Virus record (IMG/VR): IMGVR_UViG_3300027740_000003
Location: 371,005 to 435,004 of that record
Length of the DNA: 64,000 nt
Source of the DNA: a virus
Lineage: Duplodnaviria; Caudoviricetes
Strand: one strand, 5' to 3'
Shown: in pieces, positions 7,282-62,148 of the stretch
Layout: every line of letters begins with the position of its first letter
Position numbering within the stretch: position 1 is the first letter of the stretch
Made by a program: the position numbers and the translations under genes
Notes under the pieces: generated by a model
What the model saw: the letters and a program-made list of their open reading frames with translations, nothing else
What the model was told of the DNA's origin: nothing
Databases searched by the model: none

Positions 7282-7566
7282 TTATTCTATTATATCTTTA
7301 ATCATCATTTCTACACAAAGCAAAACGTCATTATTCCCATAATATGAACCCTTGTAAATATAATAAAAAGGATATTTTGTTGACATTGGCCTTAACTGAG
7401 ATATAATCTGAAAAAATTCTATATCAGTATCAGTATCAGAATGATTAATACAACGCATACCACATTTTTTACAATTATAAACTCTCGATTCGTTAGAATT
7501 ATCTAAAGGTTTATAATTGTCGTCTATGATAAATTCATGATCCTTCTTTGCTTCTTCCGGCAGCAT
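7282..7566 (-). CDS. MIKDIIE-tail protein, H/CxxC/C Zn-type
   Basis: DHEF...CKKC...LCVEMMIKDIIE. Confidence 0.85.
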   Translation of the reverse strand: MLPEEAKKDHEFIIDDNYKPLDNSNESRVYNCKKCGMRCINHSDTDTDIEFFQIISQLRPMSTKYPFYYIYKGSYYGNNDVLLCVEMMIKDIIE

Positions 7567-7790
7567 TATTCTATTATATCCTTGATAATATATTCGTCAT
7601 ATCTAAGACACGGATAATAATCATCTAACAAAAGCCAGTCAGCAATCTTTAATCTTCTCAATACATCTCCTTGATTTTGATCTAAAGAATTTAATAAAAG
7701 AGCATAAAATTTTCCACAATGTATACATTTCCCATCAATAAAACGATGTCTTATTCTGTCTCCCGTTATTTCTATTCTGTTATTTTTCAT
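7566..7790 (-). CDS. MIKDIIE-tail protein, Zn-type
   Basis: HRF...CIHC...CLRYDEYIIKDIIE. Confidence 0.85.
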   Translation of the reverse strand: MKNNRIEITGDRIRHRFIDGKCIHCGKFYALLLNSLDQNQGDVLRRLKIADWLLLDDYYPCLRYDEYIIKDIIE

Positions 7791-7799
7791 CTAAATTCA

Positions 7800-8093
7800 T
7801 TATTCTATTATATTTTTTATAATTATCTCATCACAAGAAAGCTCCTGTAATTCATAAGACGTTTCCCATAAAATTGGTTTTCCATATCCAACATAAAACC
7901 CTTGATCTAAAGCTTTCATGTTGTATATGTTTTCTTGCCAATCGTTTTCATTTTTATAAAGACGTAAAACTAAACCACATTTTTTACATTTATAATTGAT
8001 AAAATCAAAATCATAAGCTCTATTACCTAGGGAAAAACCTTGATCATAAAAAATTACAAATTCGTGATCCTTCTTTCCTTCTTCCAGCAACAT
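7800..8093 (-). CDS. MIKDIIE-tail protein, Zn-type
   Basis: DHEF...CKKC...SCDEIIIKNIIE. Confidence 0.85.
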   Translation of the reverse strand: MLLEEGKKDHEFVIFYDQGFSLGNRAYDFDFINYKCKKCGLVLRLYKNENDWQENIYNMKALDQGFYVGYGKPILWETSYELQELSCDEIIIKNIIE

Positions 8094-8380
8094 TATTCTA
8101 TTATGTCCTTTATAACCATATCAATACACGACATTTGTTGAGCTTCATATGAAAGTTTATATGTTCTAAAATCATAATACCAGCCCTGTTCATATGCCAA
8201 ACTGTTATATACATTTTTAATACACAATTCCGGATTTTCAATTACACATAATGTAATTTTACATTTGCTGCATCTATAATAATGCATGTCAGAATTTTTA
8301 CATTCGGGAAGATCATATCTTTCAGTTGAAATGAAAACAAAATTATGATCAGCAATGGCACTTTCAGGAATTGGTCTCAT
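8093..8380 (-). CDS. MIKDIIE-tail protein, Zn-type
   Basis: DHNF...CSKC...SCIDMVIKDIIE. Confidence 0.85.
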   Translation of the reverse strand: MRPIPESAIADHNFVFISTERYDLPECKNSDMHYYRCSKCKITLCVIENPELCIKNVYNSLAYEQGWYYDFRTYKLSYEAQQMSCIDMVIKDIIE

Positions 8381-8610
8381 TCAATAATGTCCTTTATCAT
8401 TGCTTCACTCTCTGTTAAACATGGATAATATTTGTCTAAAACGGAATCTATAATATCAAATGTTTGTCCGAAAGAACGACTATATTCTTTTTCATGTTCT
8501 TTTTTTAATTTGTTCAATAACAAAAAATAACTTTTCCCGCAAATTCTGCACCCATATCCATTTTGGTTTTGAAAATGAACAAACCTATGATTCATTCTCT
8601 TTTCTGGCAT
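8377..8610 (-). CDS. MIKDIIE-tail protein, Zn-type
   Basis: NHRF...CRIC...CLTESEAMIKDIIE. Confidence 0.85.
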   Translation of the reverse strand: MPEKRMNHRFVHFQNQNGYGCRICGKSYFLLLNKLKKEHEKEYSRSFGQTFDIIDSVLDKYYPCLTESEAMIKDIIE

Positions 8611-8863
8611 TTAAATCTCTTTTTAATTCTTCTTTAAATTCCTCTGTAAAATATCTACAATATCCCATTATTAGTCCAAAACACCTCTTGCAAACATAAT
8701 TCGTGGCCGGATGTCTTGCATATTTTACCCATTCGTCAGAATACATCTCCGGAGAAGGATATGGCCAAACAATCTCTTCAGAAATCTTCACCTCAGCAGA
8801 AGTTGTTTTTCCAAATAAATTCCTGCATAATGAACAAGTTTCTCCAGTACATTCATCTGTCAT
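8585..8863 (-). CDS. Cys-rich hypothetical protein
   Basis: CSLC and CKRC pairs. Confidence 0.6.
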   Translation of the reverse strand: MTDECTGETCSLCRNLFGKTTSAEVKISEEIVWPYPSPEMYSDEWVKYARHPATNYVCKRCFGLIMGYCRYFTEEFKEELKRDLNARKENES

Positions 8864-9026
8864 TCTCTACCTCGTTTAATCTTTTAATACATTCATCCGC
8901 AATCTGTTGGTGCCTGGCATCATCAAGCTTTGCCTGCATATATGCATCCATCCAAAATAAAGCCTTATATGATGTAAACATCAAACATAATAGAATAAAT
9001 ACCAAAAATATATAATATTGTTTCAC
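8853..9026 (-). CDS. small membrane protein (not in track)
   Basis: GTG start overlapping the upstream TGA; 57 aa [17 protein letters not shown]... Confidence 0.55.
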   Translation of the reverse strand: MKQYYIFLVFILLCLMFTSYKALFWMDAYMQAKLDDARHQQIADECIKRLNEVENDR

Positions 9027-9352
9027 TTGTCTTCTCCAAAATATTCATCAACTATTTTTAAAGCATCAACCTCTTGCTGCTTCGTCATTCCGTTGCTTCT
9101 TTGATCATAAATTAAATTACAATGAATGTTTTTCAAAGTTTCCCGATCAACATAAAAATATAACAAATGAATCCATCCAAAAAACACCAGGGCCAATATA
9201 GACAATATTGTGTCTTTAATAGACAGTTTTTCATAATTGCCAGTTGTACTAATTGTTTTCTGAATATCAAAACTCAGCTTGGCAGAATTCCAAACCGATG
9301 TAATTGTAAACATTATATATATTAAAACAAACAAACAAATATAAAATATCAA
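9023..9352 (-). CDS. membrane protein
   Basis: Two hydrophobic segments. Confidence 0.6.
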
Positions 9353-15260: not shown

Positions 15261-16580
15261 TTACTCTATTCCTATTTTTGTTTGATTTTCCGAGATAAAG
15301 TCTGAATCAACATTTTTCTTGTCAGATAAAAGTTGCTTCATAGCTTTTTCTATGTCCTTCTTCTGTGGGTTTTCTCTTCCAGAAGATAAAGCATGGAATG
15401 CTGAAGTAATATATAACTCCTTAAGATAAGCATATGAAAACTTTCTTTCGACCGCAATTTTTACAATATAATTCAAATTATTCTGTCTAATAGAATTACC
15501 ATACCATTTTTGAAGATATTTCATTGCCAAATCCTCTGTTGGCAAAGGAAATTCCCATTTTCTATCAAATCGAGACGGTCTGTTAAGAACAGCTCCGCCT
15601 AACCTTGATAAATCATTTGCGGTAGCAACAACCAATATTCCATTCCTAGAATATACCCCATCCATTAAATTCAAAAAATGAGACAGGCTAACATTGCCAT
15701 TCCCCAACAAAGTATCTAAATCCTCAAAATAAAGCAATGCCGGCTCTTGATCTTGCGCATATTCAAATGCATCTGTTATTACTTCGTCATTGGTCTGTTG
15801 GCCAGTCATAACCGTCACTGGCTTGAAATCATAGTTGGAAATAATCGTTTTAATGCAGCTGGACTTACCCAGGCCTACATCACCATACAAAAGCACACCC
15901 CGCTTCCAAGGAATTTGCTTTTTTGCATACATTTCTTTAGCAGAAAGGAACCCTTCTACAGTACCTCTAATCTGGTCTTTAAGATCTTCTGGTAAGAACA
16001 AATCATCCCAAGACATATTCTTCTCATAAGGAATACTCTCAGCACCAACCACATGGATCTCTAAATTGTTCCTATCTCTCTCCGTAAGCCAGTCATCAAA
16101 CGTATTTCTTAATTCAATATACTTTTCATAATCTTTGTCATCCATAATTGCAAAAAAAGACACCTCGTCCTCATTCTGATTTCCTTTATGAAATAAAGCT
16201 GCATGTAGGAACTGTAGCTTCTTATAAGAAATTTTAAATACTCCTTGGGCCATAAAATGTTCATTATGGTTATCACTCCTCCAAGAAGCAACTGAATCTC
16301 GATATAAACACTCTATCTTTACACCTACTTGTTCAGAAAATTCAAAAAAAGCCCCATCCATAACTATTTTATTATGGATCCAACAATGTAATAGACCTAC
16401 ATTGTTAGTTATACTAGTTCCAAAAGTATCTTTGGCCCAATGCATTAACTCAATTAAATTTTGAGTTGGTCTTTGATTAAAGGTCCAGTTATTTTTTGGA
16501 TTTAATAAATCAAGTCTTTTTGCACTAAGATGTTCTTGTAAATCAACCTGCTCTTCAGTTAAATAGTTATTTTCAGCCAT
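15261..16580 (-). CDS. AAA+ ATPase
   Basis: Walker A GDVGLGKS, Walker B LLYFEDLD, SRH NRPSRFD. Confidence 0.9.
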   Translation of the reverse strand: MAENNYLTEEQVDLQEHLSAKRLDLLNPKNNWTFNQRPTQNLIELMHWAKDTFGTSITNNVGLLHCWIHNKIVMDGAFFEFSEQVGVKIECLYRDSVASWRSDNHNEHFMAQGVFKISYKKLQFLHAALFHKGNQNEDEVSFFAIMDDKDYEKYIELRNTFDDWLTERDRNNLEIHVVGAESIPYEKNMSWDDLFLPEDLKDQIRGTVEGFLSAKEMYAKKQIPWKRGVLLYGDVGLGKSSCIKTIISNYDFKPVTVMTGQQTNDEVITDAFEYAQDQEPALLYFEDLDTLLGNGNVSLSHFLNLMDGVYSRNGILVVATANDLSRLGGAVLNRPSRFDRKWEFPLPTEDLAMKYLQKWYGNSIRQNNLNYIVKIAVERKFSYAYLKELYITSAFHALSSGRENPQKKDIEKAMKQLLSDKKNVDSDFISENQTKIGIE

Positions 16581-18768
16581 TTGTCTTTTTCTTAGCCTTC
16601 TTTGTTGTTCTTGCCTTTAATGCCTTTTGAACAGCCCCCGGTTTTTTATTAAATTGTTGTTGCTTCCTTAATGCAGTTGGGTCGTTCCAACCACCCTTAT
16701 CTTCTCCAGGAAGATCCTCGACATGTTTACAATTGTGTTTTTCAAAATACCCCATGCAAGTCAATTTTCTTTGTCCACTAAATACATTAACAAATAACTC
16801 ACATCCACAATCTGGACACTTCTTTCCATATGGCACCTTCCTGTTTCCTTTACATTTAGGATAATTAGAACAATAATAGAATGGTCCAAACTTGCCCGCA
16901 CTATTCAAAAACATGCCAGCGCCACACTTGGGACAACTAACTCCATCTACTACTTTTCTTTCTTCCTTTGCTTTAATTATATATTTCCCATCAATTAACT
17001 CAACCGCATGGGAACCTTTACAATCAGGCCTTTTTACACATGCAACATAAAACCCATACGGACCATGCTTTAATACAGTCTTCTCACCACATTTCGGACA
17101 CGGTATTCCTATATCTTCACCCGATAATGCAGACGCTTTCTTGCACTCCTTCTGGAATGGAATAAAAAATTCATCTAAAGCCTTTACATATCCTAACTTT
17201 CCTTCAGCAATTTTATCTAATTGCTCTTCCATATTGGCCGTATATTGATAATCCATAAAGGTAAAATTATCCTTTAACTTGGCTATCACCTTTTTCCCTA
17301 AATCCGTAGCATGATAAGTCTTATTCTTTATCTCTACATAATCTCTGCCTTTTATTGTTTCTATAATTGTTGCATATGTAGAGGGCCGGCCTATTCCACG
17401 TTTTTCTAATTCATTTACTAGAGTGGCTTCACCATACCTGTTTGGTGGTTGGGTGAACTTTTGTTCAGCTACTATTTTTGGATCTACCAGATGCAAATTA
17501 TCTTTAGCATCCAAAGATGGAAGCATTTCATCTGCACCATCTTCTTTCTTCAAATCCCCGGCAACCGACAGCCAACCCTCATATTTCAAAGATCTTCCAT
17601 TGGCTTTTAGCTCATGGCCCGAAGAGGATTTAATAACCACAGACATTGTGTCATAGACAGCAGGTTCCATCTGAGAGGCCACGAAACGCTCCCAGATTAG
17701 CCTGTAAAGCTTTTTATGGTCATCGTCGAGGAATACTGCATCCGGCTTCTTAAACACGTCTGAGGGCCGTATAGCCTCATGTGCATCCTGTGCTGAATCT
17801 TTTGATTTATAAAAATTAGCCGTTTTTGGCAAAGACATATTATTTTTCTGAAGAAAATCCCTAACGGAAGTTATTGCTTCCGGAGATATTCTTACCGAAT
17901 CGGTTCTCATATATGTAATTAATCCAGTCTCATAAAGTGATTGCGCCAATTGCATCGTTTTCTTTACCGGGAATCCGTATCTTCCTGATGCCGATTGTTG
18001 CAATTTAGATGTAGTCAAAGGTGGGTAAGGATTTCTATTCTTTTCTTTTCTTTCAACCGATTCGACAACATATGAATCTGTATCAAGTTGAGACTTAATT
18101 TTATTTGCTTTTTCCTCATTATTAACTTTGCCGGTATATTTTGCAACAAAACTTTCTGTAGTTTTGGCCAAGGTTGCATTTATGTTCCAATATTCTTCTG
18201 GGACGAAGGCTTCTATTTCTAATTCTCGGTCTACGATAAGTCTTGCTGCAACAGACTGGACTCTTCCAGCGGAAAGATTTTGTCCAACCCCTTCTCGTAA
18301 ATAATCAGAGGCAAGGAATCCTACAAGACGATCTACTACACGCCGAGCCTGTTGGGCATCAAAAAGATCTTCGTCGATGTCTCTTGGGTTAGCGACTGCA
18401 TTTTGCAGCACCGTTTTCGTAATTTCATTAAAAGTAATACGTTTTATTGGTTTTCCAGTTGATTCTAAACATGATCTTAAATGCCAAGCAATGCTCTCAC
18501 CTTCCCTATCGGGATCAGAAGCTAATAATATCAATCCAACATCACTGGCCGCATCAATGATTGATTGAATTTTATCTTTTTTATCTGGCATTAATTTATA
18601 TTTGGGCTTATAATCATGTTCAATATCTACGCCTAATCTGCAAGTTTTATCTCCAGTTGCAAGATCTCTAATGTGTCCATAAGAGGCTCTAAGAATATAA
18701 TTAGAGCCCAGATATGAAGATATTTTTTTCATTTTACTGGGAGACTCCACAATTATTAGTGTTTTCAT
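16573..18768 (-). CDS. topA: DNA topoisomerase I (type IA) with C-terminal Zn ribbons
   Basis: TOPRIM IVESP and DPDREGE, SAGRVQS, catalytic ITYMRTDS, GIGRPSTY, three C4 ribbons. Confidence 0.97.
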   Translation of the reverse strand: MKTLIIVESPSKMKKISSYLGSNYILRASYGHIRDLATGDKTCRLGVDIEHDYKPKYKLMPDKKDKIQSIIDAASDVGLILLASDPDREGESIAWHLRSCLESTGKPIKRITFNEITKTVLQNAVANPRDIDEDLFDAQQARRVVDRLVGFLASDYLREGVGQNLSAGRVQSVAARLIVDRELEIEAFVPEEYWNINATLAKTTESFVAKYTGKVNNEEKANKIKSQLDTDSYVVESVERKEKNRNPYPPLTTSKLQQSASGRYGFPVKKTMQLAQSLYETGLITYMRTDSVRISPEAITSVRDFLQKNNMSLPKTANFYKSKDSAQDAHEAIRPSDVFKKPDAVFLDDDHKKLYRLIWERFVASQMEPAVYDTMSVVIKSSSGHELKANGRSLKYEGWLSVAGDLKKEDGADEMLPSLDAKDNLHLVDPKIVAEQKFTQPPNRYGEATLVNELEKRGIGRPSTYATIIETIKGRDYVEIKNKTYHATDLGKKVIAKLKDNFTFMDYQYTANMEEQLDKIAEGKLGYVKALDEFFIPFQKECKKASALSGEDIGIPCPKCGEKTVLKHGPYGFYVACVKRPDCKGSHAVELIDGKYIIKAKEERKVVDGVSCPKCGAGMFLNSAGKFGPFYYCSNYPKCKGNRKVPYGKKCPDCGCELFVNVFSGQRKLTCMGYFEKHNCKHVEDLPGEDKGGWNDPTALRKQQQFNKKPGAVQKALKARTTKKAKKKTNG

Positions 18769-19705: not shown

Positions 19706-20005
19706 TTATTCTATTATATCTTTTATCATCATGTCAACACACGTATAGTTGCAATATTCTGACCCATCTATATAATACCACGAATCATTAATCCATTTAT
19801 CCCGTGATAATTCATTAACCAATCCGCCATAAACAGTATCTATAAACGTTTTTAAATCTAAAACATAAATACATTTAATATTGCATTTATTACATTTATA
19901 TACAATAAAACTTTTATAACTATAATCAATATAGAATTTATGATCTTTCTTTACTTCTTTTGGAATAATTACATTGGTTGTTTTATAATATCCTTTATAA
20001 CTCAT
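19706..20005 (-). CDS. MIKDIIE-tail protein, Zn-type
   Basis: Start refined to ATG 20005 (ATGA overlap); DHKF...CNKC...TCVDMMIKDIIE. Confidence 0.85.
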   Translation of the reverse strand: MSYKGYYKTTNVIIPKEVKKDHKFYIDYSYKSFIVYKCNKCNIKCIYVLDLKTFIDTVYGGLVNELSRDKWINDSWYYIDGSEYCNYTCVDMMIKDIIE

Positions 20006-40637: not shown

Positions 40638-40743
40638 AGATTTATCCAATTGATCAGTTCTCAAACAATTATATGTGTTCATGCCCAGCCTGGACAAAGA
40701 AGATTCGTTCCTCACAGATCTCGACAGATTGCCACAAAATGCA

Positions 40744-46134: not shown

Positions 46135-46158
46135 TCAACTATATCCCTTTTATTTAAA

Positions 46159-49675: not shown

Positions 49676-49920
49676 TCTATTATGTCTTTTATCATTAGTT
49701 CGTCATCAGTTAGTTTCGTACTGTTTTTTATAATTTCTTTTATATCTGATTTATAGATATAAATTATCTGGCCTTTAATAATTATATAATTGTGTTCAAA
49801 TTGTTTATGAAACAAATCGCCATCATAATAATCTATAAAAATAGAGTTTCCTTTTTTAATAATACAACATCCTAAACTTTCAAACTCTTCATTAACAACA
49901 TACCAGCCAGACTCTATCAT
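49672..49920 (-). CDS. MIKDIIE-tail protein
   Basis: Ends KLTDDELMIKDIIE. Confidence 0.85.
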   Translation of the reverse strand: MIESGWYVVNEEFESLGCCIIKKGNSIFIDYYDGDLFHKQFEHNYIIIKGQIIYIYKSDIKEIIKNSTKLTDDELMIKDIIE

Positions 49921-51240: not shown

Positions 51241-51657
51241 TTATTCTATTATATCTTTTATTACTGCCTCTTCAGCCGTGATTAATTCAAGTTCTTTAAA
51301 TTTAAGATTCATTGAATTTTTCAATGAATCCAATGAATTATATGAGTTCATATAACTCGCAGGATATAACAGTTTATCATTATAGAAAATTATAAATGAA
51401 AAAGTTTCGTCAGCTTTATTCATTTCGCTAATTTTATTTACAACACGTATAATTATACTAGAGCTATGATTAAATTTAACAAAATATTTCTTACCAAAAT
51501 TATAACTATATATTTTATGTCTATCAGATAAATTAGAACAATAATGATTGCAACACTCTCCTGGCTTATAACCAAATTCCGAGATTACAGAATTATATAT
51601 AAATTCAATGTCATATTTTAAATCTATACAATGTTTTATAAAATCATTACTATTCAT
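51241..51657 (-). CDS. MIKDIIE-tail protein
   Basis: Ends LITAEEAVIKDIIE. Confidence 0.85.
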   Translation of the reverse strand: MNSNDFIKHCIDLKYDIEFIYNSVISEFGYKPGECCNHYCSNLSDRHKIYSYNFGKKYFVKFNHSSSIIIRVVNKISEMNKADETFSFIIFYNDKLLYPASYMNSYNSLDSLKNSMNLKFKELELITAEEAVIKDIIE

Positions 51658-52004
51658 TCAATAATATCCTTAATAATACTCTCATCTTTGGTTAATAAAC
51701 CAACTTCTTTAAATGCATTAATCAATGCTTTTCTTAACTCTAAAGGAGTGGTTAGATTTCTTTCCACATAATAGCTATTGCCCATAAAACGATCATAAAA
51801 CATAACCGTACACCCTCCATAATAACTAAATCTAATACAATAAATAATATTATCTTTAGAAGATTTAACAAATCCATTATCTTTGTTGCCACACACAAGA
51901 TTTAATATTACTTCGTCTGAAATCATTCGTAATTTACCAAAATCATATCCATAATCAACAAGAATTGATTTTAAAACATCTAATATTTGTTTTTTGGTAA
52001 TCAT
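51654..52004 (-). CDS. MIKDIIE-tail protein
   Basis: Ends LLTKDESIIKDIIE. Confidence 0.85.
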   Translation of the reverse strand: MITKKQILDVLKSILVDYGYDFGKLRMISDEVILNLVCGNKDNGFVKSSKDNIIYCIRFSYYGGCTVMFYDRFMGNSYYVERNLTTPLELRKALINAFKEVGLLTKDESIIKDIIE

Positions 52005-52354
52005 TCAATGATATCTTTTACCATAACTTCATCTATAGTCAATATGTTAAGCTTCTTTATATCGAAATATTTTTCAAACATTTCTACAAAATTTTCTAAT
52101 CCACCAGCATATTCCTTTTCTCCCAACCATCCAAAATTTTTTATCAAACTTCTTAATGTTAGACGGCCTTTTTCTTTCTTAATTGTAATTTTATTTATTT
52201 AATATGGGGCGGTTTTGAAAAGAAAATATATTCCTATATCCAAATCGTCAATAGTTATTATGTTCTTTAAAGAATTTATAGAAACGTTATGTGAATATTT
52301 TAACAAATAATCAAATATATTCTTATATTTTAAATTTTTGTGGCTAATTTTCAT
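52001..52354 (-). pseudogene. MIKDIIE-tail ORF with tandem in-frame TAA TAA at 52196-52201 (not in track)
   Basis: ATG 52354 and TGA 52001 are in frame (118 codons) and both ends are ATGA-coupled; ends ILTIDEVMVKDIIE. Confidence 0.8.
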
Positions 52355-52737
52355 TCTATTATATCCTTAATTATCATCATATTTTTATAATTTTCCTCAA
52401 CTTTATCTAATTTAGATAGATCTTTTTCTAAATAAGATAACATATGTTTATGATGATTAATTTTATCAATAATCAAACGTTTCATATGCTCTTTAGCATT
52501 AAATAATGCCTCTTCTGGAAAAACAAATCTTCTATCTAATAGACAATTTGATTTTTCATCAATCATAACTGTCCACATATCATCAAGATCATGGTAAATC
52601 AAATCAACACCCAAATATTCTGAATGATAAATATAACTCCATTCACTATGTTTAGTATCAATATCTTTGATACTAAAATAAATTCCTAAAACAGTAATTT
52701 CTTTTTCAATAGAAGGATTTTGAACCGCTTTTTTCAT
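52351..52737 (-). CDS. MIKDIIE-tail protein, coiled-coil type
   Basis: Ends YKNMMIIKDIIE. Confidence 0.85.
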   Translation of the reverse strand: MKKAVQNPSIEKEITVLGIYFSIKDIDTKHSEWSYIYHSEYLGVDLIYHDLDDMWTVMIDEKSNCLLDRRFVFPEEALFNAKEHMKRLIIDKINHHKHMLSYLEKDLSKLDKVEENYKNMMIIKDIIE

Positions 52738-53141
52738 TCAATAATATCCTTAATAGACATTTGCTCTTTACACTCTTTAAATATCTCTTCCAATGTAGTC
52801 ATATATTGACTATATAAATGGAATCTTTCATTTGCTTCTTTTACTTTATTTTTGCAAGCGGAAACTTCATATTTAGCATCTTCTAATTTAGAATTCATTC
52901 TTTTTTTAAAATCGCCAAGAACTCTATTTAAAGCCTCAACATCTGTTTTGCCGCCAGGAAAAACATCTCCACGAAAAATAAAACTATACTTACTATTTTC
53001 AAATTTTTCATCAATATACATTTCTATAAAAGGCAATTCTGTACATTCATATTTCATATTAAATTTGCCATCACACAGATTAAGGGTTTTAAGTGTAAAC
53101 TTTTTTCCACAAATAACAATTTCTTTCTCTATGTAATTCAT
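52734..53141 (-). CDS. MIKDIIE-tail protein, coiled-coil type
   Basis: Ends KEQMSIKDIIE. Confidence 0.85.
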   Translation of the reverse strand: MNYIEKEIVICGKKFTLKTLNLCDGKFNMKYECTELPFIEMYIDEKFENSKYSFIFRGDVFPGGKTDVEALNRVLGDFKKRMNSKLEDAKYEVSACKNKVKEANERFHLYSQYMTTLEEIFKECKEQMSIKDIIE

Positions 53142-54355
53142 GTTAGTTTCCCTACATTTGGATCAATCTTTTTACACAATTCTAGCATAGCTTCACTTGC
53201 TGAAGAATGAATTTTAGTAATATCATTCTTGTTTCCAAGTGAAAATGTTTTTATATCAGTTGTCTTTCCTCTTTTCAAAGCAAATAATGCCGCAGGCCAC
53301 AATCTTTCTTTTGCAGCTAATGCAAAAGTTTTTATATCTTCAATTCCTTGAAGATCCTCCCAGTCCTTCTGGGTTGTAGATATTACCTGCTGTACAATAG
53401 GTTTTAATTTTAGAATGCGTTTAGTTATCAACTCAGGCATCAATCCAACAATATCATCATCTTTGCCAAGCAGAATGACATTTATACAATTCTTTACCGA
53501 TGTTTCTAAACTAGTTCTTAGATGAGAAGCCGCTAACCAAGCCGGATTTTTTACTTTAATCCGATGCCAGTATTTGTCCCTAACAACAACCCCTTCATGT
53601 TCTTCAGGATTCCATTCTCGAATTACTTTGACCATATGCTCAATATTATAAAATGAATATGTATTTGGGACACATAATTCAAATCTGTCATCTCCAAGTC
53701 CAATCCATCCATCAGGCTCCTCTTCCTCTAATGTTATATTGTCCCTTACCCCAATTAATGTCAATTTTATATCATCATACCTACATACTACCCTATTGTA
53801 GGGGGATGTAAGTTCAAAAATGAACGTTTTGTTCTTGGCGTCTGGCCGACATTCTGATAAATCTCCCATCAGGTCTTGTATAGACATCGGCGGGTCATCA
53901 GAAACAGTTCCTGGAGCCTGTTGAGCTATATACATTTTATCACAGGCATAATCTACAAGTTTGGAAAAAGTTAAATCACATCCGTTCTCCAAGGGAACAT
54001 CTGCTTCCGGACGAGATCTTGTTGCGACATACCAATGATTTTTGTAAAAATACACACAAATCATAGTTCCGTCTAGTTTTTCTAAATATCCAGCACTTGA
54101 CCAGTCTATTTTGGCAGCAAACTCTTCTTGCTCGAGATTAAAAAATCTTGAAAAAGGAAAAGCTAGAATATCATAAGATCCTTCTTCTAAAACCAAGCCA
54201 CGACATTCACAAGCTAGAAGATCAGAGTTAGATACTTCTAGTTGATCATAGTTTAGAGAGATCTTTCCATTAGTTATGGTAGCATAAACGCCATGTTCTT
54301 TAGCAAGATCATCGAGGGTTTTACCAGAGAGGAGGTATTTTTGAATTAGAAGCAT
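53138..54355 (-). CDS. RNA ligase (T4 Rnl1-like)
   Basis: CRGLVL, FPFSRFFN, motif I EKLDGT, FIFEL, motif IV EGVVV, motif V RIKVKN. Confidence 0.88.
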   Translation of the reverse strand: MLLIQKYLLSGKTLDDLAKEHGVYATITNGKISLNYDQLEVSNSDLLACECRGLVLEEGSYDILAFPFSRFFNLEQEEFAAKIDWSSAGYLEKLDGTMICVYFYKNHWYVATRSRPEADVPLENGCDLTFSKLVDYACDKMYIAQQAPGTVSDDPPMSIQDLMGDLSECRPDAKNKTFIFELTSPYNRVVCRYDDIKLTLIGVRDNITLEEEEPDGWIGLGDDRFELCVPNTYSFYNIEHMVKVIREWNPEEHEGVVVRDKYWHRIKVKNPAWLAASHLRTSLETSVKNCINVILLGKDDDIVGLMPELITKRILKLKPIVQQVISTTQKDWEDLQGIEDIKTFALAAKERLWPAALFALKRGKTTDIKTFSLGNKNDITKIHSSASEAMLELCKKIDPNVGKLT

Positions 54356-54737
54356 TTTCTATTGTTTCCTTATCTGAAACTATATCTAATACACCAATTA
54401 TTCTTTTAATATTTACAAATTTAGTTTCGTCTATTTTTCCAATAAAAATAGTATAATCTGCTACTTTTATTCCAACAACCGAAAGTTCTTTAAGTTCTTT
54501 AATAATATCCGGAATCTGATCATTTGAAGCAGATTTAATTACATAACCAGAGCCTACAGACTTTAGTAGTGATGATAGATCTGAGATCTCCTCTGTGGGG
54601 ACAACATCACCATTTTCTCTACGTCTGTCAAGTTCTTGCATTGCTTTAATTGCCAGGTCTTTGTTTATTTTGAAAGCCCTATATGTGGCAATTATTGAAA
54701 CCAAAGAATCTATCGTAAATGTTTCTAGTTCTATCAT
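54321..54737 (-). CDS. hypothetical protein
   Basis: Start refined to ATG 54737 (ATGA overlap with the tail ORF stop). Confidence 0.65.
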   Translation of the reverse strand: MIELETFTIDSLVSIIATYRAFKINKDLAIKAMQELDRRRENGDVVPTEEISDLSSLLKSVGSGYVIKSASNDQIPDIIKELKELSVVGIKVADYTIFIGKIDETKFVNIKRIIGVLDIVSDKETIENASNSKIPPLW

Positions 54738-55150
54738 TCTATTATATCTTTTATCATTGCTTCGTCTGGAGTTAATAGTTTTAACTCTATGAATTCTTTT
54801 TCTAAAGCTGAAATTATATTTATATAAGAATTTGTATAACACCAATGAAGTACAATAGGATGATCTGGATACGATATACAATATATAAATCCAGTTCGAT
54901 GATAACGAAAACAATTTATTTTAACATAATTTATTTTATGAAGATTTTTCAATCCAAAAAAGAAATCGCATCTAATTATATAAGAAAAATAAAAATATTC
55001 ATTATGAATTTGTATTTTACTTTTGCTAGTATTATATCCGAATTTTTTCAACAAATTAATTATATCCACAGTTATTTTGTTTTCAAAATAAAAAATGTGT
55101 CGGCGGAACTTTTCTTTTAATTCTTTTTTCTTCTTCCTACTCAATTTCAT
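54734..55150 (-). CDS. MIKDIIE-tail protein
   Basis: Ends LLTPDEAMIKDIIE. Confidence 0.85.
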   Translation of the reverse strand: MKLSRKKKKELKEKFRRHIFYFENKITVDIINLLKKFGYNTSKSKIQIHNEYFYFSYIIRCDFFFGLKNLHKINYVKINCFRYHRTGFIYCISYPDHPIVLHWCYTNSYINIISALEKEFIELKLLTPDEAMIKDIIE

Positions 55151-55503
55151 TCTATTATGTCCTTAATAAGCGTTTCGTCTTTTGTTAGAACCTTGCTGTC
55201 TCTAAATGTTTTTACCAATATATTTTTGATATCACTGAAGTTAGTGAAAATATATTTTTTACCATAATCCAAAGAAGATTCAATATAAAATATTTTTCTG
55301 GATAAAATTACAATATACCATTTATTACATTCTAAATAATTACAACCATTACTAAAAAGCTGTTGAGTATTACAAAGATGAATATAACTCTCATGATTAG
55401 TATTAAAATCATGATTCAATTTAACAGCATCAAACTCATAATTGTTTTTAATAAACTCAATTATTTGATTATATAAACTAAAATATGTTTTATCATCATT
55501 CAT
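55147..55503 (-). CDS. MIKDIIE-tail protein
   Basis: Ends VLTKDETLIKDIIE. Confidence 0.85.
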   Translation of the reverse strand: MNDDKTYFSLYNQIIEFIKNNYEFDAVKLNHDFNTNHESYIHLCNTQQLFSNGCNYLECNKWYIVILSRKIFYIESSLDYGKKYIFTNFSDIKNILVKTFRDSKVLTKDETLIKDIIE

Positions 55504-55793
55504 TATTCAATTATATCCTTAATCATAGCCTCTGTTTTGTTCAACAAACCTATATTTTTAATTTCTTTTCTCAAAAATGATTTTATATCTTTCATTGAAT
55601 TATAATTACATTTTTTAAAATTAAATTCAATCTTATGTAAATTTTGATAAACGAAAATTCTTTGAATAATTTCTCTTTTAATATTGTAAAAGCCAAATGT
55701 TATTATATTTCTATGAACAATACAACTAATATTAAAACCATACTCTTTGTTAAAGAAATATATTATTTCGTTTATTAATTTTTGTTTATTCAT
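55503..55793 (-). CDS. MIKDIIE-tail protein
   Basis: Ends LLNKTEAMIKDIIE. Confidence 0.85.
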   Translation of the reverse strand: MNKQKLINEIIYFFNKEYGFNISCIVHRNIITFGFYNIKREIIQRIFVYQNLHKIEFNFKKCNYNSMKDIKSFLRKEIKNIGLLNKTEAMIKDIIE

Positions 55794-56480: not shown

Positions 56481-57254
56481 TCAGTATCCTAAATTTAATA
56501 TTGGTTTAAATGCTGGGCCATCAATAACAATTTTATCACCAAGTCCATCATTTGAAATAATTTGTCCAGTCAACCTGCCAGTATCATAGATTCCACTATC
56601 TAGGTTGCAAGAGTGAGTATAATACTTTGCCTGGCCATCTTCCTGAGCAGCATGTCCAGAAACAATATATCCAAACCGCCCATCATAAACTTCATGCCAT
56701 GATGTTCCACCTTCTTTGGACTTAACTAGAGTTTTTACTCCATTAATCATTTGCCAGACTAGTGGGATCATTTTTCCATTTTCATCTACGTCTCGGACAT
56801 AAACAACCTCGACATCTTTGCCGAGACTGTTCTGATCCATCAGCGGACTAACACCAGCATGTAGAACAGTTATTTTCATGTTTGGAAATTCAAATGTAAT
56901 AACTAATGGTCTTCCCCTCCACCATTTTAAACATTTAGATAAAGGATTTTTCTTTTTCGATCTAATTATTTTTACTTCATGATTACCACGGACAGCATAA
57001 GCAATATGTTTATCAGATAATCTAATAAGTTCTTCTGTTATTATTTCAGCAGATTTTTCACCATAACCTTTATCATAAACATCTCCTACTGAGACAATTA
57101 ATTTCGTAGGAGAAGGTTTCCATTCTTCCAAAAGATTAAAAAATTGTTCTGTATGTTCATGTATATCGCCAATAATACATATAGAAGTATTTTCTGGAAC
57201 CTGAATTGTTTGAAATGCAGGCAATTTAGAAGCATCTTTATATGTATTGCTCAT
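56481..57254 (-). CDS. calcineurin-like metallophosphoesterase
   Basis: GDIHEH, GDVYDKG, GNHE, VLHAG, VSGH, LDSG. Confidence 0.9.
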   Translation of the reverse strand: MSNTYKDASKLPAFQTIQVPENTSICIIGDIHEHTEQFFNLLEEWKPSPTKLIVSVGDVYDKGYGEKSAEIITEELIRLSDKHIAYAVRGNHEVKIIRSKKKNPLSKCLKWWRGRPLVITFEFPNMKITVLHAGVSPLMDQNSLGKDVEVVYVRDVDENGKMIPLVWQMINGVKTLVKSKEGGTSWHEVYDGRFGYIVSGHAAQEDGQAKYYTHSCNLDSGIYDTGRLTGQIISNDGLGDKIVIDGPAFKPILNLGY

Positions 57255-57742
57255 TCTATGATGTCCTTTATCATTGCACAGTCATAATAATAGTTTAAAT
57301 TGTTTTTAATTTTATTTAAATCTTCTAATCTTTTCTGTTTTTCATTATAAAATTCTATTAGTTTTTTATTATTTTTCAAATTTTCATTTTGTTTTAATTT
57401 CTTTTCAATTTTATCAACAAAACATTGCGAATTATCTTTCCAAAGTGAAATTAAATACAAAAACAAATCTTTTGACATACATTTTATAGCAGAAAGATTT
57501 GGTTTATCTGGGTCATTATTTTGAAAAATAGTATCCATATAAATTATGGATGAAAAATCTTTGTTTAAATGGTTTTCGCCATCATAACTCATAAAATTTT
57601 CTAAAGATCCTAAAATGCCACCATTAAAATGTTTTAACAAATTTTGTATATCTGGCAATAAATGTAGTTTGTCATCATCGATTCCAATAAGATCGTTAGA
57701 ATCTAAACTATACTCTGTTATTCTAGTTAACCAAATGATCAT
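57251..57742 (-). CDS. MIKDIIE-tail protein
   Basis: Ends YYDCAMIKDIIE; paralogue of 57739-58206. Confidence 0.85.
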   Translation of the reverse strand: MIIWLTRITEYSLDSNDLIGIDDDKLHLLPDIQNLLKHFNGGILGSLENFMSYDGENHLNKDFSSIIYMDTIFQNNDPDKPNLSAIKCMSKDLFLYLISLWKDNSQCFVDKIEKKLKQNENLKNNKKLIEFYNEKQKRLEDLNKIKNNLNYYYDCAMIKDIIE

Positions 57743-58206
57743 TCTATGATTCCTTTTATCATTAATTCGTCGTAATATTTGTCTACATTGTTTTCAATTT
57801 TGTTTAAATCTTCTAAGAATTTTTTATAATAGGTATAACATACCAAAAAAATATCATCTTCCTCATCTTTTTTATTTATTTTATATAAATAAAGTTCTTT
57901 CCACAATGAAATCATATATATAAACAGTCTTTTAGACATATATTGTAATAACTCATATCTTGGCTCAGAAATATCTGACTTATCAAATATGTCTTCATAA
58001 TGAATTACATATACCAAATTTACAAATTGATTGCTTCCATCATAACTAGTGAATTTTTCTATAAGACCAAGAATTTCTCCGCCATGAACTTCTTTACAAT
58101 CTCCCGTATTTTCTAAATAATAATTTAAATCTGATAATAAATCAATTTTATCATCGTCAAATTTAACCAAATAATATTCAATTTCTTTTCTTAAATAGAC
58201 AATCAT
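57739..58206 (-). CDS. MIKDIIE-tail protein
   Basis: Ends YYDELMIKGIIE. Confidence 0.85.
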   Translation of the reverse strand: MIVYLRKEIEYYLVKFDDDKIDLLSDLNYYLENTGDCKEVHGGEILGLIEKFTSYDGSNQFVNLVYVIHYEDIFDKSDISEPRYELLQYMSKRLFIYMISLWKELYLYKINKKDEEDDIFLVCYTYYKKFLEDLNKIENNVDKYYDELMIKGIIE

Positions 58207-58613
58207 TCGATTATATTCCTTATCATTATTTCGTCATATACAAGGTTTATTTTGTTTTCAGACAAATATTTACTAATTATTTTTAATTTACAACTATCAT
58301 TTTTAAATTTAATTTTCCACTGTTTTACCAAATAATTAATCAATTTTTTCGGGAGCCAATAAAAATGATAATCTGTTTCAAATGCCGAAGGATCAAACAA
58401 ATCTTCAATTTTTTTATAGAACTTATTCTTTCTCAATGATTTTATTTTAAATTCATTATTTGGAATAATAGCATAAATTGTATTATAATACGATTTGATA
58501 AATTCAAAATTTTCTATTTCGTCTGGAATCTCTAAAAATCTTGGAACAAACCATTCATAATTATGTTCAATATGCTCCGTTGATATGTTATTTTCTTTGT
58601 AAATTACAATCAT
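58203..58613 (-). CDS. MIKDIIE-tail protein
   Basis: Ends VYDEIMIRNIIE. Confidence 0.85.
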   Translation of the reverse strand: MIVIYKENNISTEHIEHNYEWFVPRFLEIPDEIENFEFIKSYYNTIYAIIPNNEFKIKSLRKNKFYKKIEDLFDPSAFETDYHFYWLPKKLINYLVKQWKIKFKNDSCKLKIISKYLSENKINLVYDEIMIRNIIE

Positions 58614-58798
58614 TCGATTATGTCTTTTATTAATAAATTACTCATTATCTCTTCTTCAAATTCTTTATAATTAGGACAATACATTATAACGTTTAAATTA
58701 TATTTGCTTAATTTAATTGCTTCTAGTTGAACTTTCAATGTTGGGTTCCTAATATATTTTATTATTGGAGGGTGTTTTCTAACAATACGCAATTGCAA
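58610..58798 (-). CDS. MIKDIIE-tail protein, probably 5'-truncated
   Basis: No ATG; NPSEELQ and NPTLKVQ repeats as in 20253-20723; ends SNLLIKDIIE. Confidence 0.65.
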   Translation of the reverse strand: MQLRIVRKHPPIIKYIRNPTLKVQLEAIKLSKYNLNVIMYCPNYKEFEEEIMSNLLIKDIIE

Positions 58799-59669: not shown

Positions 59670-60069
59670 TTTTATTTCTTTCTTTGTCTGCCAATTCTTC
59701 TAGCCATTCATTGTATTTTGCCAAATCTTTTTCATACTTGTGTTGTTTAATGTTATATTTTTTAATGGAATTAATATATAATTCTCTCTCCGATTTATAA
59801 TTTTCATCTTTTAATTTATGAACAATTCTAGCAGAAGGATATTCTCCACCATTCTCATCAGCTTTTAATATTGGCTCAATAAAAATATTTGAAGCTAAAT
59901 TTTCTTCTATTTCATTAATATCATTGTTTGATGTATATTTTGCTCGAATTTCATTTAATAATTCTTTTAACGAAAGAGGACAAGGGATTTCTGTATATAT
60001 TTCTATTTCAAAAAATTCTTTAGGACAAACCATTAGTTCAGATTTTTCTGGCGGAATTGGCTTTTTCAT
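59662..60069 (-). CDS. hypothetical protein
   Basis: 135 aa. Confidence 0.6.
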   Translation of the reverse strand: MKKPIPPEKSELMVCPKEFFEIEIYTEIPCPLSLKELLNEIRAKYTSNNDINEIEENLASNIFIEPILKADENGGEYPSARIVHKLKDENYKSERELYINSIKKYNIKQHKYEKDLAKYNEWLEELADKERNKND

Positions 60070-60434
60070 TCAATGATGTCCTTTATAGATTTTTCTGTTG
60101 CCGTCAATTTATTGTTTTGATACATTTCTTTTATATCATTTATTTTTAATAAAATAAAATCTCCAGAAATACCAGGAAGCTCATCCCAATAATTTTGACT
60201 ATTTTCGCTATAAACAAGCCAATCGTTGGATTTAATAAACTGCGGATTGTTAATTTTTAAAAAATTTGAACTAAAATTTACAAATTCCCCAGATATTGTA
60301 ATGTCATCCAAAACAGCAGTAATCATTTTCCCAATAAGCGGTACGAATAATTTTTCATTGCTAACTTTTCCTAAAGAAATAGCCAGAGAAAAGCCTTCCC
60401 CAGCATCATTCTGTGATGGTTTGTTATTTCCCAT
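60066..60434 (-). CDS. MIKDIIE-tail protein with Sm-like core
   Basis: LIGKMITAVLDD...GEFVNF; ends LTATEKSIKDIIE. Confidence 0.8.
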   Translation of the reverse strand: MGNNKPSQNDAGEGFSLAISLGKVSNEKLFVPLIGKMITAVLDDITISGEFVNFSSNFLKINNPQFIKSNDWLVYSENSQNYWDELPGISGDFILLKINDIKEMYQNNKLTATEKSIKDIIE

Positions 60435-60438
60435 TCTA

Positions 60439-60861
60439 TTATTTGGTCCAATACGTAGTAAATCCTCTTGTCCCTTCAGTCCGGAGCCCCTTTTCTCCTT
60501 TTGAAGCCGTCCATTCTTTGCTCATTACATGAAGTAATGTGCTCAGAACCTTAGGATTAATATCATGTTTCGCATTAGCAAGGAATTCTCGAATCTCCCT
60601 CACCGTCATTCCTGGCTTGGCAAATACAGCTGCTGTAATCGCCTCTCTGTGGCCTTTTGACCCAGGCACTGGACCTACACCCTTCTTGGCCTGGCGAGGC
60701 TTTGTAGAGGCAGCCAGGGCCTGAGAATTGCTATTAAGCTGTTCTAGGGCTTTTTTAATTTCTGCTGTCTGGGCTTCAGAAGAAGCTAACGCAGCCGTAA
60801 GTTTATAAATAGCCAAATTGCGAATATCAGGATCATTAAAAATAGAAATTAGGTCAACCAT
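60439..60861 (-). CDS. putative winged-helix DNA-binding protein
   Basis: PGMTVREIREFL...KVLSTLLHVM; start refined to ATG 60861. Confidence 0.6.
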   Translation of the reverse strand: MVDLISIFNDPDIRNLAIYKLTAALASSEAQTAEIKKALEQLNSNSQALAASTKPRQAKKGVGPVPGSKGHREAITAAVFAKPGMTVREIREFLANAKHDINPKVLSTLLHVMSKEWTASKGEKGLRTEGTRGFTTYWTK

Positions 60862-60887
60862 TGTTATTCCTCTCAAGATCGAGAGAC

Positions 60888-60916
60888 AGCATATGCATTT
60901 CTAGTAGGCTTGTCAA
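60888..60916 (-). promoter_or_regulatory. sigma70-type promoter
   Basis: TTGACA-N17-TATGCT; the -35 TGA is the upstream stop. Confidence 0.75.
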
Positions 60917-61347
60917 GCCCGGTGCTTGGTAGCAGAGATTTGTAGTTCTTCCTCGCCAACATCTGCTATAAATATTAGAAACACAAGTTCTTGTGAACAG
61001 TCTAATGTTAAATCAGCTTGTATTTTGCCAACAAAAAATTTTCTAGGAGATCTATTTTCTTCTCCAATATCTTCGAATCTTTCTTCTAATTCTACAGCTA
61101 TATTATTATGTCTCGAATATGTTTTCTTTTTATTATTAGAATAATATTTAAATATATTTGTAAATTCTGGACAAGTTAAAGGAGCAATGTGAAGTTGTTT
61201 TAATTCTCCTTCAAGGAAAACCAGGAAAGCTTGTCCTTTAGCAAAGTTTAAAGTTCCATTGAACTGTAGTTTTCCTATGTAATATGTTTGCCCATCTCTA
61301 TCTTCTTTGGGAAGTAATCCTATTTTTATTGGATGCATATAGTTCAC
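60913..61347 (-). CDS. hypothetical protein with internal duplication
   Basis: YYIGKLQFNGTLNFAKGQAFLVF vs FFVGKIQADLTLDCSQELVFLIF. Confidence 0.7.
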   Translation of the reverse strand: MNYMHPIKIGLLPKEDRDGQTYYIGKLQFNGTLNFAKGQAFLVFLEGELKQLHIAPLTCPEFTNIFKYYSNNKKKTYSRHNNIAVELEERFEDIGEENRSPRKFFVGKIQADLTLDCSQELVFLIFIADVGEEELQISATKHRA

Positions 61348-61598
61348 TCTATTATGTCTTTTATCATTGCTTCGTCTTCAGTTATACATGTCTCAACACT
61401 TTCAATTATATTAAACAATGCATTTAATATATCTAAATCAACATGATCAAGCTGACTCAACTTATCTAAATTGTCGTAATCAACATTTTTACTGTCAATT
61501 AGTTCTTGAATTAATTCTGATAATTTTTTCTTGCAATTAATACATACGGGTTCCATTTTACCAATATTAACAGGCATTTTATGATTAATTCTTTTCAT
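61344..61598 (-). CDS. MIKDIIE-tail protein, Zn-type
   Basis: NHKM...CINC...CITEDEAMIKDIIE. Confidence 0.85.
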   Translation of the reverse strand: MKRINHKMPVNIGKMEPVCINCKKKLSELIQELIDSKNVDYDNLDKLSQLDHVDLDILNALFNIIESVETCITEDEAMIKDIIE

Positions 61599-61861
61599 TC
61601 AATTAAGTCTTTTATCATCAATTCGTCTTCGGACAAACATCCTTTATGATGGTTCTCCACGTAATTAATTTGGACATTAACTGATGAATCAGAAGAAATG
61701 GTTTTCAATATAGGATCACTTGCCCATTGATTCCATATCCTCATATCAGTTGAATCAACAAGCTCAATGTATAGTTGATCTAAACTTTTCCCGCAGTTTA
61801 TGCATTTGTAATTAACGAATGTTTCATATGTCTTTTGAATATTATGTTTCACCCAATTCAT
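61595..61861 (-). CDS. MIKDIIE-tail protein, Zn-type
   Basis: KHNI...CINC...CLSEDELMIKDLIE. Confidence 0.85.
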   Translation of the reverse strand: MNWVKHNIQKTYETFVNYKCINCGKSLDQLYIELVDSTDMRIWNQWASDPILKTISSDSSVNVQINYVENHHKGCLSEDELMIKDLIE

Positions 61862-62148
61862 TGTATAATATCCTTGATAATTATCTCATCACAAGTAAGG
61901 TTTTTGTTAGTTGCGGAATCAGGAATTATTCCCTCACCATAATCTGTTGCTTTAATTTTGCAATTTTTGCATTTATAATAAATTGTTCTGGGTTCGTGAT
62001 GAACTTCGGCGGTAGAATCACTACGTCGAATAAAGAATTTTCTGCCACCAGATACTTTTACTGGCTCCCAATCATGTCCATAACTGTCCTTTCCCGATTG
62101 ATTTGGATAATTTTTAAGATAATCTTTCCAGGTTTGTGGCTGCTTCAC
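61858..62148 (-). CDS. MIKDIIE-tail protein, Zn-type
   Basis: GHDW...CKNC...TCDEIIIKDIIQ. Confidence 0.85.
   Translation of the reverse strand: MKQPQTWKDYLKNYPNQSGKDSYGHDWEPVKVSGGRKFFIRRSDSTAEVHHEPRTIYYKCKNCKIKATDYGEGIIPDSATNKNLTCDEIIIKDIIQ

Follow-up and report, generated by a model that had tools for sequence, protein, structure and literature searches.

A strictly C-terminal peptide tag shared by about 112 small proteins in the genome of a huge phage

The virus genome described in IMG/VR record IMGVR_UViG_3300027740_000003 (G000; 435,004 bp, rated 100% complete, GC content 35%, with most of its genes on the minus strand) contains a large set of small genes whose products end in the same 13-residue C-terminal helix, L-[TSC]-x-D-[EC]-x-hydrophobic-I-K-D-I-I-E-COOH. 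We describe this tail in the 64 kb right end of the genome (G000 371005–435004, referred to as the window, in whose coordinates positions are given unless stated otherwise), elsewhere in G000, and in its relatives. About 112 of the approximately 751 called genes of G000 (about one in seven, or 15%) are tagged in this way. The tail is a shared terminal peptide tag, and it is notable for its scale, its strict terminal position, its spread over unrelated folds, and its dual coding. We give an even chance to the proposition that it is a docking handle by which one partner handles these ~110 proteins as a group.

Within the window, 42 minus-strand open reading frames (ORFs) end in I[KR][DN][IL]I[EQL] directly before the stop codon, and five further ORFs have close-variant ends (IVDIIL, IMDIIK, IMDIIR, IADIIL and IKGIIE), for a total of 47; an earlier note on this DNA had counted about 47 tagged ORFs in ten arrays, and both the number and the arrays are the same here. 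The terminal position is strict throughout the genome. In a six-frame translation of G000 I[KR]D[IL]I[EQ] has 96 matches, every one of them immediately preceding a stop codon, with no internal match, and a degenerate 21-nt pattern describing the tail DNA has 72 matches in G000, compared with none for a reversed control. With an eight-residue position-specific scoring matrix applied to 556,000 sequence windows of G000, 126 terminal and 9 internal matches were found, the internal ones mostly in non-coding frames, and the same matrix gave 64 terminal and 5 internal matches in G001, a second IMG/VR genome (458,729 bp, GC content 39.5%) that is an independent relative; its 220 reciprocal best hits with G000 have a median identity of 44%. 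The 220–340 kb stretch of large virion genes in G000, in which the head module is found (major head protein, portal and large terminase, at 297–327 kb), has no tagged genes.

The tail is somewhat looser in the small genes of G001, where it has the form [TS]C.[DE]..I[KRMQ][DENGS][IV]I[EKTQV] and where IIE, IIK and IIT close 58, 21 and 13 gene products, respectively; the core common to the relatives is hydrophobic-I-[KR]-x-I-I-[EK]. The tail finishes with E, K, T or Q in G000, in G001, and in the representatives of the zinc family described below, and the isoleucines at -2, -3 and -6 are retained in 92–100% of the sequences, including those with different folds. In the predicted helix the hydrophobic residues at -7, -6, -3 and -2 occupy one face, and the lysine and acidic or polar residues (-5, -4 and -1) occupy the other. 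No Pfam or PHROG family covers the C-terminal 13–15 residues in the 47 window proteins or the 65 other tagged proteins scanned; Pfam gives only DUF4116, which matches the body alone in 10 members, together with spurious repeat matches, and the PHROGs give three unnamed families covering four members. The earlier note had not recognised the tail as a described family, and had named a match to a known Pfam or InterPro C-terminal domain as one observation that would refute its proposal; neither Pfam nor PHROG matches the tail. Motif strings such as KDIIE, IIKDIIE, IIREIIE and the like were found in no relevant paper of the library searched. A search of 5.8 billion proteins with a tail-dominated alignment (A1) yielded 10 matches, four of them outside G000, although such a search is too insensitive for a 13-residue motif.

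The bodies that precede the tail are of many kinds. When the tails are trimmed they fall into many groups by BLAST and phmmer, and comparison of seven family profiles from which 14 residues had been removed gives similarity probabilities of less than 1%, with the exception of one related pair. The zinc and SH3-like families, aligned with hhalign, match in the last 17 columns only, and the AlphaFold2 (AF2) models differ in fold, in full agreement with the earlier proposal of unrelated bodies under one tail. Judged by these comparisons, the tail is present on at least six unrelated small protein folds. In the AF2 models the tail helix has a predicted local distance difference test score (pLDDT) of 77–88, similar to that of the body. 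The Pfam and PHROG scans revealed no enzyme domain among the tagged proteins scanned, as expected from the previous remark that no recognisable enzyme carries the tail, and the tagged bodies resemble binding modules, being small, non-enzymatic and diversified in tandem arrays. No intact paralogue without the tail was found in any tagged family, the tail-less homologues being short fragments only.

The largest group is a family of zinc proteins (designated HCCC) in which His10, Cys36, Cys39 and Cys87 are invariant in 47 aligned sequences. The fourth zinc ligand is the cysteine at position -11 of the tail, present in all 47, and it is there that the tail helix starts; the consensus across the family is hydrophobic-[TS]-C-x-[ED]-hydrophobic-I-I-[KR]-x-I-I-[EK]. 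An AF2 model built from the family alignment predicts a four-stranded sheet followed by a C-terminal helix at residues 87–96 (pLDDT 72). In Foldseek the best matches of this model are WRKY domains, with E-values of 0.2–1 and TM-scores (template modelling) of 0.3–0.5. We considered and rejected a WRKY-GCM1-like zinc finger as the identity of this family, as the matches are weak and the ligand order is H...CxxC...C rather than the canonical CCHH or CCHC. The family has no membership in Pfam, where there are only sub-threshold zinc-knuckle matches with E-values up to 1. A second group, which we refer to as the SH3-like ‘MIxxGxY’ group, is predicted to form a small barrel with two helices after it, the second of which is the tail (pLDDT 81), and the top 12 PDB matches in a fold search are all SH3 domains or SH3-containing proteins, albeit with weak E-values. 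A third corresponds to DUF4116 (PF13475), which is matched above threshold by 10 of the 65 tagged proteins outside the window (best E-value 1.5e-28), with the tail lying outside the Pfam match; the corresponding BLAST cluster has 14 members, including the window genes at 20253–20723 and 58610–58798.

To place the tail in a wider context, a profile of the zinc family was compared with 1.84 billion representative proteins, giving 1,038 matches at E ≤0.001, and 148 of the best 150 were examined. Among these 148, 61 are long bacterial proteins with multiple zinc-knuckle repeats, matching in the body only, and 87 are small proteins, all but two of which (85/87) end exactly in the tail; 54 of the 87 are from neither G000 nor G001. 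Ten of the small proteins were looked up, and all are metagenomic and lack both an informative name and an entry in NCBI or UniProt. Two proteins, P0138 and P0040, are fused double zinc units in which the tail of the first unit (IIKNIID and IIKKHIG) runs into the GH/THNF start of the next; they are the only proteins with an internal tail among the matches examined, and they look like read-through or fused neighbours. In the long representatives (P0011–P0027, 600–4600 residues) the repeat unit resembles the N-terminal GHxF...YYxCxxCG of the phage zinc family, the repeats have a different ligand order and no isoleucine-rich tail, and one of six scanned with Pfam has choline-binding repeats.

These data indicate that the tail is native to a large, undescribed, metagenome-only family of 65–100-residue HCCC zinc proteins, which has expanded into tandem arrays within a clade of huge phages from soil and groundwater. 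The wide occurrence of the zinc family among related huge phages makes this family the probable origin of the tail, from which other folds would later have acquired it; in both G000 and G001 the tail is also found on the SH3-like barrel, on DUF4116 helical repeats, and on helical proteins. The proposal in the earlier note of a terminal helix grafted onto many cargo domains is therefore only partly sustained: the domains are unrelated and small and the helix is strictly terminal, but it is not free-floating everywhere, since its first turn holds the fourth ligand in the zinc family. Among the metagenome runs, a soil run contains G000 completely and a groundwater run contains a small share of it, whereas no RNA run was found to contain it. 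A 57.5-kb contig (L155; GC content 30%) that is syntenic with the window has about 16 tagged zinc genes in 20 kb, and a contig of 143.5 kb has about 45 small genes in 12.5 kb, mostly of 65–90 codons and commonly with 4-nt overlaps. Scanning of IMG/VR with the 21-nt tail DNA pattern gave mostly single matches at the level of chance, and a 33-nt pattern found only G001 besides G000.

Although both G000 and G001 are rich in tagged genes, only four of their 220 reciprocal best hits are tagged pairs, and this scarcity of recognisable tagged orthologues shows that the bodies turn over fast while the tail stays. The tagged genes also behave like cassettes inserted at the junctions of a conserved backbone, because five of them separate a gene for a peptidase with a von Willebrand factor A (vWA) domain from its downstream neighbour in the window, and these two genes are adjacent in relatives.

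Conservation of the tail is at the level of the peptide. For the core codons at -6 to -2 (I-K-D-I-I) the entropy at codon positions 1 and 2 is 0–0.6 bit, and at position 3 it is 0.95–1.5 bit, compared with about 1.6–1.8 bit in body codons; all three isoleucine codons, both lysine codons, and both aspartate codons are in use. The tail is thus under strong purifying selection as a peptide and its synonymous sites are near saturation. The earlier note had deduced selection on the peptide from synonymous variation in the tail, and the near invariance of positions 1 and 2, with a third position almost as variable as in the bodies, bears this out. With synonymous sites nearly saturated and amino acids fixed, neither recent duplication nor gene conversion nor an RNA or DNA signal can be what mainly causes the conservation.

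There is nonetheless a second layer of coding in the same nucleotides. The start codon of the next gene overlaps the stop codon in 69% of tagged genes (57% as ATGA and 12% as TAATG), compared with about 25% of other genes. TGA is the stop codon in 63% of tagged genes and 33% of others, a preference that follows from the ATGA overlaps, and GAA is the last codon in 93% and 72%, respectively. When the Lys-Asp pair is encoded as AAGGAY, it generates a Shine-Dalgarno (SD)-like site 9 nt ahead of the start of the following gene, whose ATG overlaps the stop (GAATGA or TAATG), and AAG is used for this lysine in 39 of 68 tagged genes with an overlap but in only 7 of the 33 without one (Fisher p=0.0007). 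The SD-like region extends from 4 nt to 20 nt upstream of the overlapping starts, as for example at 49917–49940 and 48112–48135. However, 35 tagged genes without an overlap retain an intact tail, and 12 of these are more than 30 nt from the next gene or have no gene within 200 nt. We conclude that the tail codons double as the ribosome-binding region of the following gene, and that this is a real second coding layer but not the cause of the conservation.

What, then, is conserved in the peptide? The same residues, with the isoleucines scarcely replaced, are found on three very different folds and in phages with 44% core identity, from which we infer a common binding surface rather than packing of the helix against each body. 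The isoleucine positions show little of the interchange among I, L, V and M that core packing alone would be expected to give. A plausible mechanism is that the four-isoleucine face and its flanking acidic residues would constitute a handle bound by one conserved partner. The tagged proteins could then be adaptors, each presenting a variable target-binding domain on a constant handle in the way of F-box/PRANC proteins or the SspB tethering tail, or they could be cargo or substrates with a common address, in the manner of a capsid-targeting sequence or a degron. Any small domain would become a client or an adaptor by acquiring 13 residues, and these would also bring the ribosome-binding site of the next gene. 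The more specific proposition of a true address, in which the free C-terminal helices of over 100 fast-evolving binders would all be held by one phage or host machine (a MoxR/vWA-zincin system, ClpP together with an AAA+ unfoldase, or the procapsid), is one that we regard as possible but tentative.

Candidate machines encoded in the window are ClpP (Pfam E-value 3e-53), a YjoB/Cdc48-like AAA protein, a MoxR-like AAA_5 protein, and the DUF2201 vWA/peptidase. The last of these (46639–47832, minus strand) is untagged and is a candidate reader of the tail, in which a DUF2201_N zincin-like peptidase (HEWLH) is fused to a vWA domain with an intact metal-ion-dependent adhesion site (MIDAS; DTSAS); the HExxH and MIDAS motifs are intact in both G000 and G001. 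The MoxR-like AAA_5 ATPase (49917–51230, minus strand) is also untagged, has a weak Pfam match and 60% identity to its G001 orthologue, and is flanked by tagged genes on both sides. We compared the vWA/peptidase neighbourhoods of the window (44587–47832), G001 (152285–154125), and two further contigs, L157 (3601–5431) and L158 (10001–11702). In G000, G001 and L157 alike, a tagged gene stands directly upstream of the vWA/peptidase gene, and the three upstream genes are not orthologous; in three diverged phages, tagged genes are interspersed with the MoxR-like and vWA/peptidase genes. Relatives have a conserved gene of about 165 codons directly 3′ of the vWA/peptidase gene (166 codons in G000, where it is behind the five tagged genes), and the MoxR, vWA/peptidase and ~165-codon genes may form a conserved trio. 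We regard the pair of MoxR-like ATPase and zincin-peptidase/vWA protein as the leading candidate for the reader, although as a specific identification it is a long shot. A predicted complex of the vWA/peptidase (397 residues) with Mg and an 82-residue tagged protein scored 0.06, and it speaks neither for nor against the interaction. A PDB sequence search with the MoxR-like and vWA proteins found no match, searching IMG/VR with the MoxR-like protein or a two-sequence profile recovered G001 only, and the Atlas offered no useful lead for a 500-residue window protein that matches TPR faintly.

Several other candidates were considered and put aside. Tail-like stretches occur in the candidate readers themselves, at the N-terminus of the vWA/peptidase (HEEIIKDIRR, 47805–47832) and at the C-terminus of the L157 and G001 MoxR proteins (DDIMEDIIEYIAAA, L157 820–883), and these were set aside as possibly due to chance because several matches of four residues are to be expected in each genome. 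A type I secretion signal was rejected, as the only ABC ATPase passing the Pfam cut-off in G000 is in an importer-like operon that is absent from G001. The likeness to Dot/Icm secretion signals raised in the earlier note is superficial, with no exporter-type ABC transporter in the genome, although other secretion machinery was not screened. A PDZ reader was rejected too, there being no match in the genome to PDZ_2, the one model used (host proteins are not covered), and the last residue not being hydrophobic. Neither does the tail correspond to a degron of the ssrA/ClpX type, which is an LAA-like non-polar tripeptide, as it ends in I-I-E; it may be a degron of another specificity, as the phage encodes both ClpP and the YjoB/Cdc48-like AAA protein. 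The ClpP gene adjoins a gene for a DksA/TraR-type zinc finger (39659–40682), and this pair, with HU-like and NADAR genes close by, is conserved in the distant relatives L158 and L159.

Several observations weigh against a common partner or against this candidate for it. Three relatives in which the vWA/peptidase, at 43–47% identity, is as diverged as that of G001 have adjacent MoxR and vWA genes with no tagged genes within 10 kb on each side; the candidate reader therefore appears to be older and more widespread than the tag, and its tagged neighbours in G000 may simply mirror a high density of tagged genes. Approximately 110 different clients is also a large number for one partner. Moreover, the zinc-family helix begins at a zinc ligand, and in proteins of 65–100 residues it may simply belong to the hydrophobic core. 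This last point leads to an explanation in which the tail is structural only, a C-terminal cap that completes the small core and the zinc site and is reused as a stabiliser with no common partner. The invariant cysteine at -11 in all 47 zinc-family members, the body-like pLDDT of the helix, and the retention of the tail by every intact member of each tagged family, as for a part of the fold, are all consistent with it. Yet the same seven residues are 90–100% kept on a zinc beta-sheet, an SH3-like barrel, and an alpha-solenoid, which must offer the helix different surfaces to pack against, isoleucine is hardly ever replaced by leucine, valine or methionine, and the bodies diverge beyond recognition where the tail does not. 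We therefore consider a purely structural role to be unlikely, though it deserves to be kept in mind.

Alternatively, the tails could associate with each other, pairing in small helical bundles to form homo- or hetero-oligomers or a common assembly with no separate receptor. The strongly amphipathic character of the helix would suit this, and identical handles on many co-expressed, translationally coupled proteins would permit mixing. However, a single helix of 10–13 residues is short for a stable bundle, and such interfaces usually drift or co-vary within each paralogue group, whereas here there is one sequence across families and across phages at 44% core identity; we consider self-association improbable, a little more so than the structural cap. 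The overlaps with downstream genes raise one further explanation, that the sequence is kept as a gene-junction signal for translation of the next gene (with its SD-like AAGGA, AU-rich spacer, and ATGA or TAATG) or for cassette recombination, and that the peptide is a by-product. Although the enrichment of overlaps, TGA and GAA in tagged genes and the AAG bias at overlaps are as this predicts, variation that is confined to third positions and is near saturation is not expected of an RNA or DNA signal, and the 35 tagged genes without overlaps keep the tail all the same. In addition, untagged genes are coupled without the tail sequence, and no ribosome-binding site would reach as far as the upstream half of the tail, L-x-x-D-E. 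A gene-junction signal as the primary function is accordingly very improbable.

The docking-handle interpretation has parallels in known systems. The nearest known analogue in logic is the capsid targeting sequence (CTS) of phage T4, which is amphipathic and acidic and ends in I-x-E, as does the tail. Both are short terminal peptides that are the sole common part of diverse, fast-evolving, small phage proteins. The CTS, however, is N-terminal, is cut off by the prohead protease, and is present on a handful of proteins, whereas the tail is always C-terminal, is present on ~112 proteins, and is absent from the head-gene region at 220–340 kb. Membership of the T4-type CTS group was therefore rejected on the basis of position. 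The T4 internal proteins form a very varied group of defence proteins in which only the CTS is conserved (PMC3012670).

A second parallel is with the vWA-MoxR systems. In the part of the account by Kaur, Burroughs, Iyer and Aravind (2020, PMC7159879) drawn on here, these systems include a zincin peptidase together with a small protein that diverges rapidly and is conserved in its C-terminal peptide, and the MIDAS sites of vWA domains are proposed to capture peptides. The tagged phage similarly has diverging small proteins with a conserved C-terminus beside a zincin and MoxR/vWA genes, its HExxH peptidase being fused to the vWA domain and located inside the tagged arrays, although this is a match of gene neighbourhood only. 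The motifs given in that part of the account are FxSxx-COOH, RxD, or an acidic run, which are different from the hydrophobic-IKDIIE of the phage, and the systems it describes are actinobacterial conflict systems with one or a few tagged genes rather than more than 100. No VMAP, AP-ATPase or radical-SAM partner was found among the window proteins scanned, the rest of the genome not having been searched. A further difference is that relatives have the MoxR/vWA pair without tagged neighbours.

Shared C-terminal docking tails are well known, and include the T4 clamp-binding tails, the acidic tails of T7 gp2.5 and gp4, SspB tethering tails (ClpX), the EEVD of Hsp70 and Hsp90 (TPR), PTS1 (Pex5), and encapsulin cargo-loading peptides. 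The principle is similar, in that the extreme C-terminal peptide of unrelated proteins has one reader, but the phage tail is unrelated in sequence, has a polar last residue where the tips of the others are mostly hydrophobic or aromatic, and has far more carriers. Poxvirus ankyrin/PRANC and cellular F-box proteins are large, fast-evolving tandem families in which a variable binder is joined to a constant C-terminal handle that leads into one effector machine; PRANC and F-box are folded domains of about 40–50 residues that bind Skp1. By analogy, the tagged arrays would resemble these in architecture, with a variable binding domain and a small, constant C-terminal handle, although the phage tail is a single helix of ~13 residues, has no sequence similarity to either, and belongs to a bacterial virus.

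The tagged genes of the window are all on the minus strand. The first array has three HCCC zinc-family genes, encoding proteins of 94 residues (7282–7566, ending MMIKDIIE), 97 residues (7800–8093, IIIKNIIE; predicted to fold as a beta-sheet with a C-terminal helix at residues 87–96), and 95 residues (8093–8380, MVIKDIIE), and two genes for small H/CxxC/C proteins of 74 residues (7566–7790, YIIKDIIE) and 77 residues (8377–8610, AMIKDIIE). Two further zinc-family genes encode 99 residues (19706–20005) and 84 residues (20002–20256; close homologues, P0007 and P0008, are on other metagenome contigs), and these are accompanied by a 156-residue protein with DUF4116-like helical repeats (20253–20723, LAIKDIIE). 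Four genes at 27199–27498, 27498–27782, 27782–28150 and 28150–28428 encode proteins of 92–122 residues with tails of the form L[ST]xxE[LM]xIKDIIE, and are joined by TAATG-type stop/start overlaps. A disrupted tagged gene follows at 28425–28708, with an N-terminal piece of 47 residues (28565–28708) and a tail-bearing C-terminal piece of 40 residues (28425–28547); it is a frameshifted copy of the type at 29460–29744, with an E-value of 4.9e-26 to the intact paralogue. Two more tagged genes (28708–29007 and 29009–29299) precede three of the MLVGHKTF type and its relatives (29460–29744, 29744–30019 and 30019–30297).

The five tagged genes located between the vWA/peptidase gene and its conserved downstream neighbour are at 45084–45581, 45578–45871, 45868–46134, 46159–46401 (IVDIIL) and 46398–46646 (IRDLIL). 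The SH3-like ‘MIxxGxY’ group and its relatives form an array in which all genes are joined by ATGA, at 47834–48115, 48112–48411, 48408–48656 (IMDIIK), 48653–48904 (IMDIIR), 48901–49146, 49143–49427 (IADIIL), 49424–49675 and 49672–49920. Genes of helical type are found at 51241–51657, 51654–52004 and 52001–52198 (for which the start is uncertain), and again at 54734–55150, 55147–55503 and 55503–55793, with two other tagged genes at 52351–52737 and 52734–53141. The remaining tagged genes are a group of four at 57251–57742, 57739–58206 (IKGIIE), 58203–58613 (IRNIIE) and 58610–58798 (DUF4116-like), a single gene encoding 122 residues at 60066–60434 (KSIKDIIE), and three that encode CxxC-containing proteins at 61344–61598, 61595–61861 (IKDLIE) and 61858–62148 (IKDIIQ).

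The window also contains auxiliary genes, including a split CoaBC-like pair with Flavoprotein and DFP domains (31292–33080), an RlaP-like nucleotidyltransferase (26288–27187), a T4-type RNA ligase 1 (53138–54355), and a type IA topoisomerase with zinc ribbons (16573–18768); the syntenic contig L155 additionally encodes ribosomal protein S21. Outside the window, the importer-like operon noted above (G000 32426–35580) encodes a 267-residue ABC ATPase, a permease with five transmembrane segments, and a 515-residue binding protein, and is probably an auxiliary metabolic module. A 455-residue protein encoded at G000 218299–219666 has a weak match to the PHROG ‘tubulin PhuZ’ (E-value 1e-6) and 60% identity to its G001 orthologue.

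Three of these findings have meaning whether or not one partner reads the tail. A peptide signal that overlaps the ribosome-binding site of the next gene is a clean example of dual coding and stands without a known reader; the HCCC zinc family is large, as about 1,000 representative clusters match its profile (61 of the 148 examined in the zinc body only), and is confined to metagenomes; and this family is without a Pfam model. Being short, strictly terminal, and compatible with at least three very different folds, the tag could serve as a natural portable tag for loading, tethering or degrading proteins. If one partner does read the tail, the handle would be usable to pull that partner down, and the system would be a bacterial-virus counterpart of the F-box and PRANC families, or of the T4 capsid targeting sequence, comprising 15% of the proteome. 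It would also show that unannotated genes of huge phages can be organised on a principle not seen before, with a seventh of the proteome constituting one functional class.

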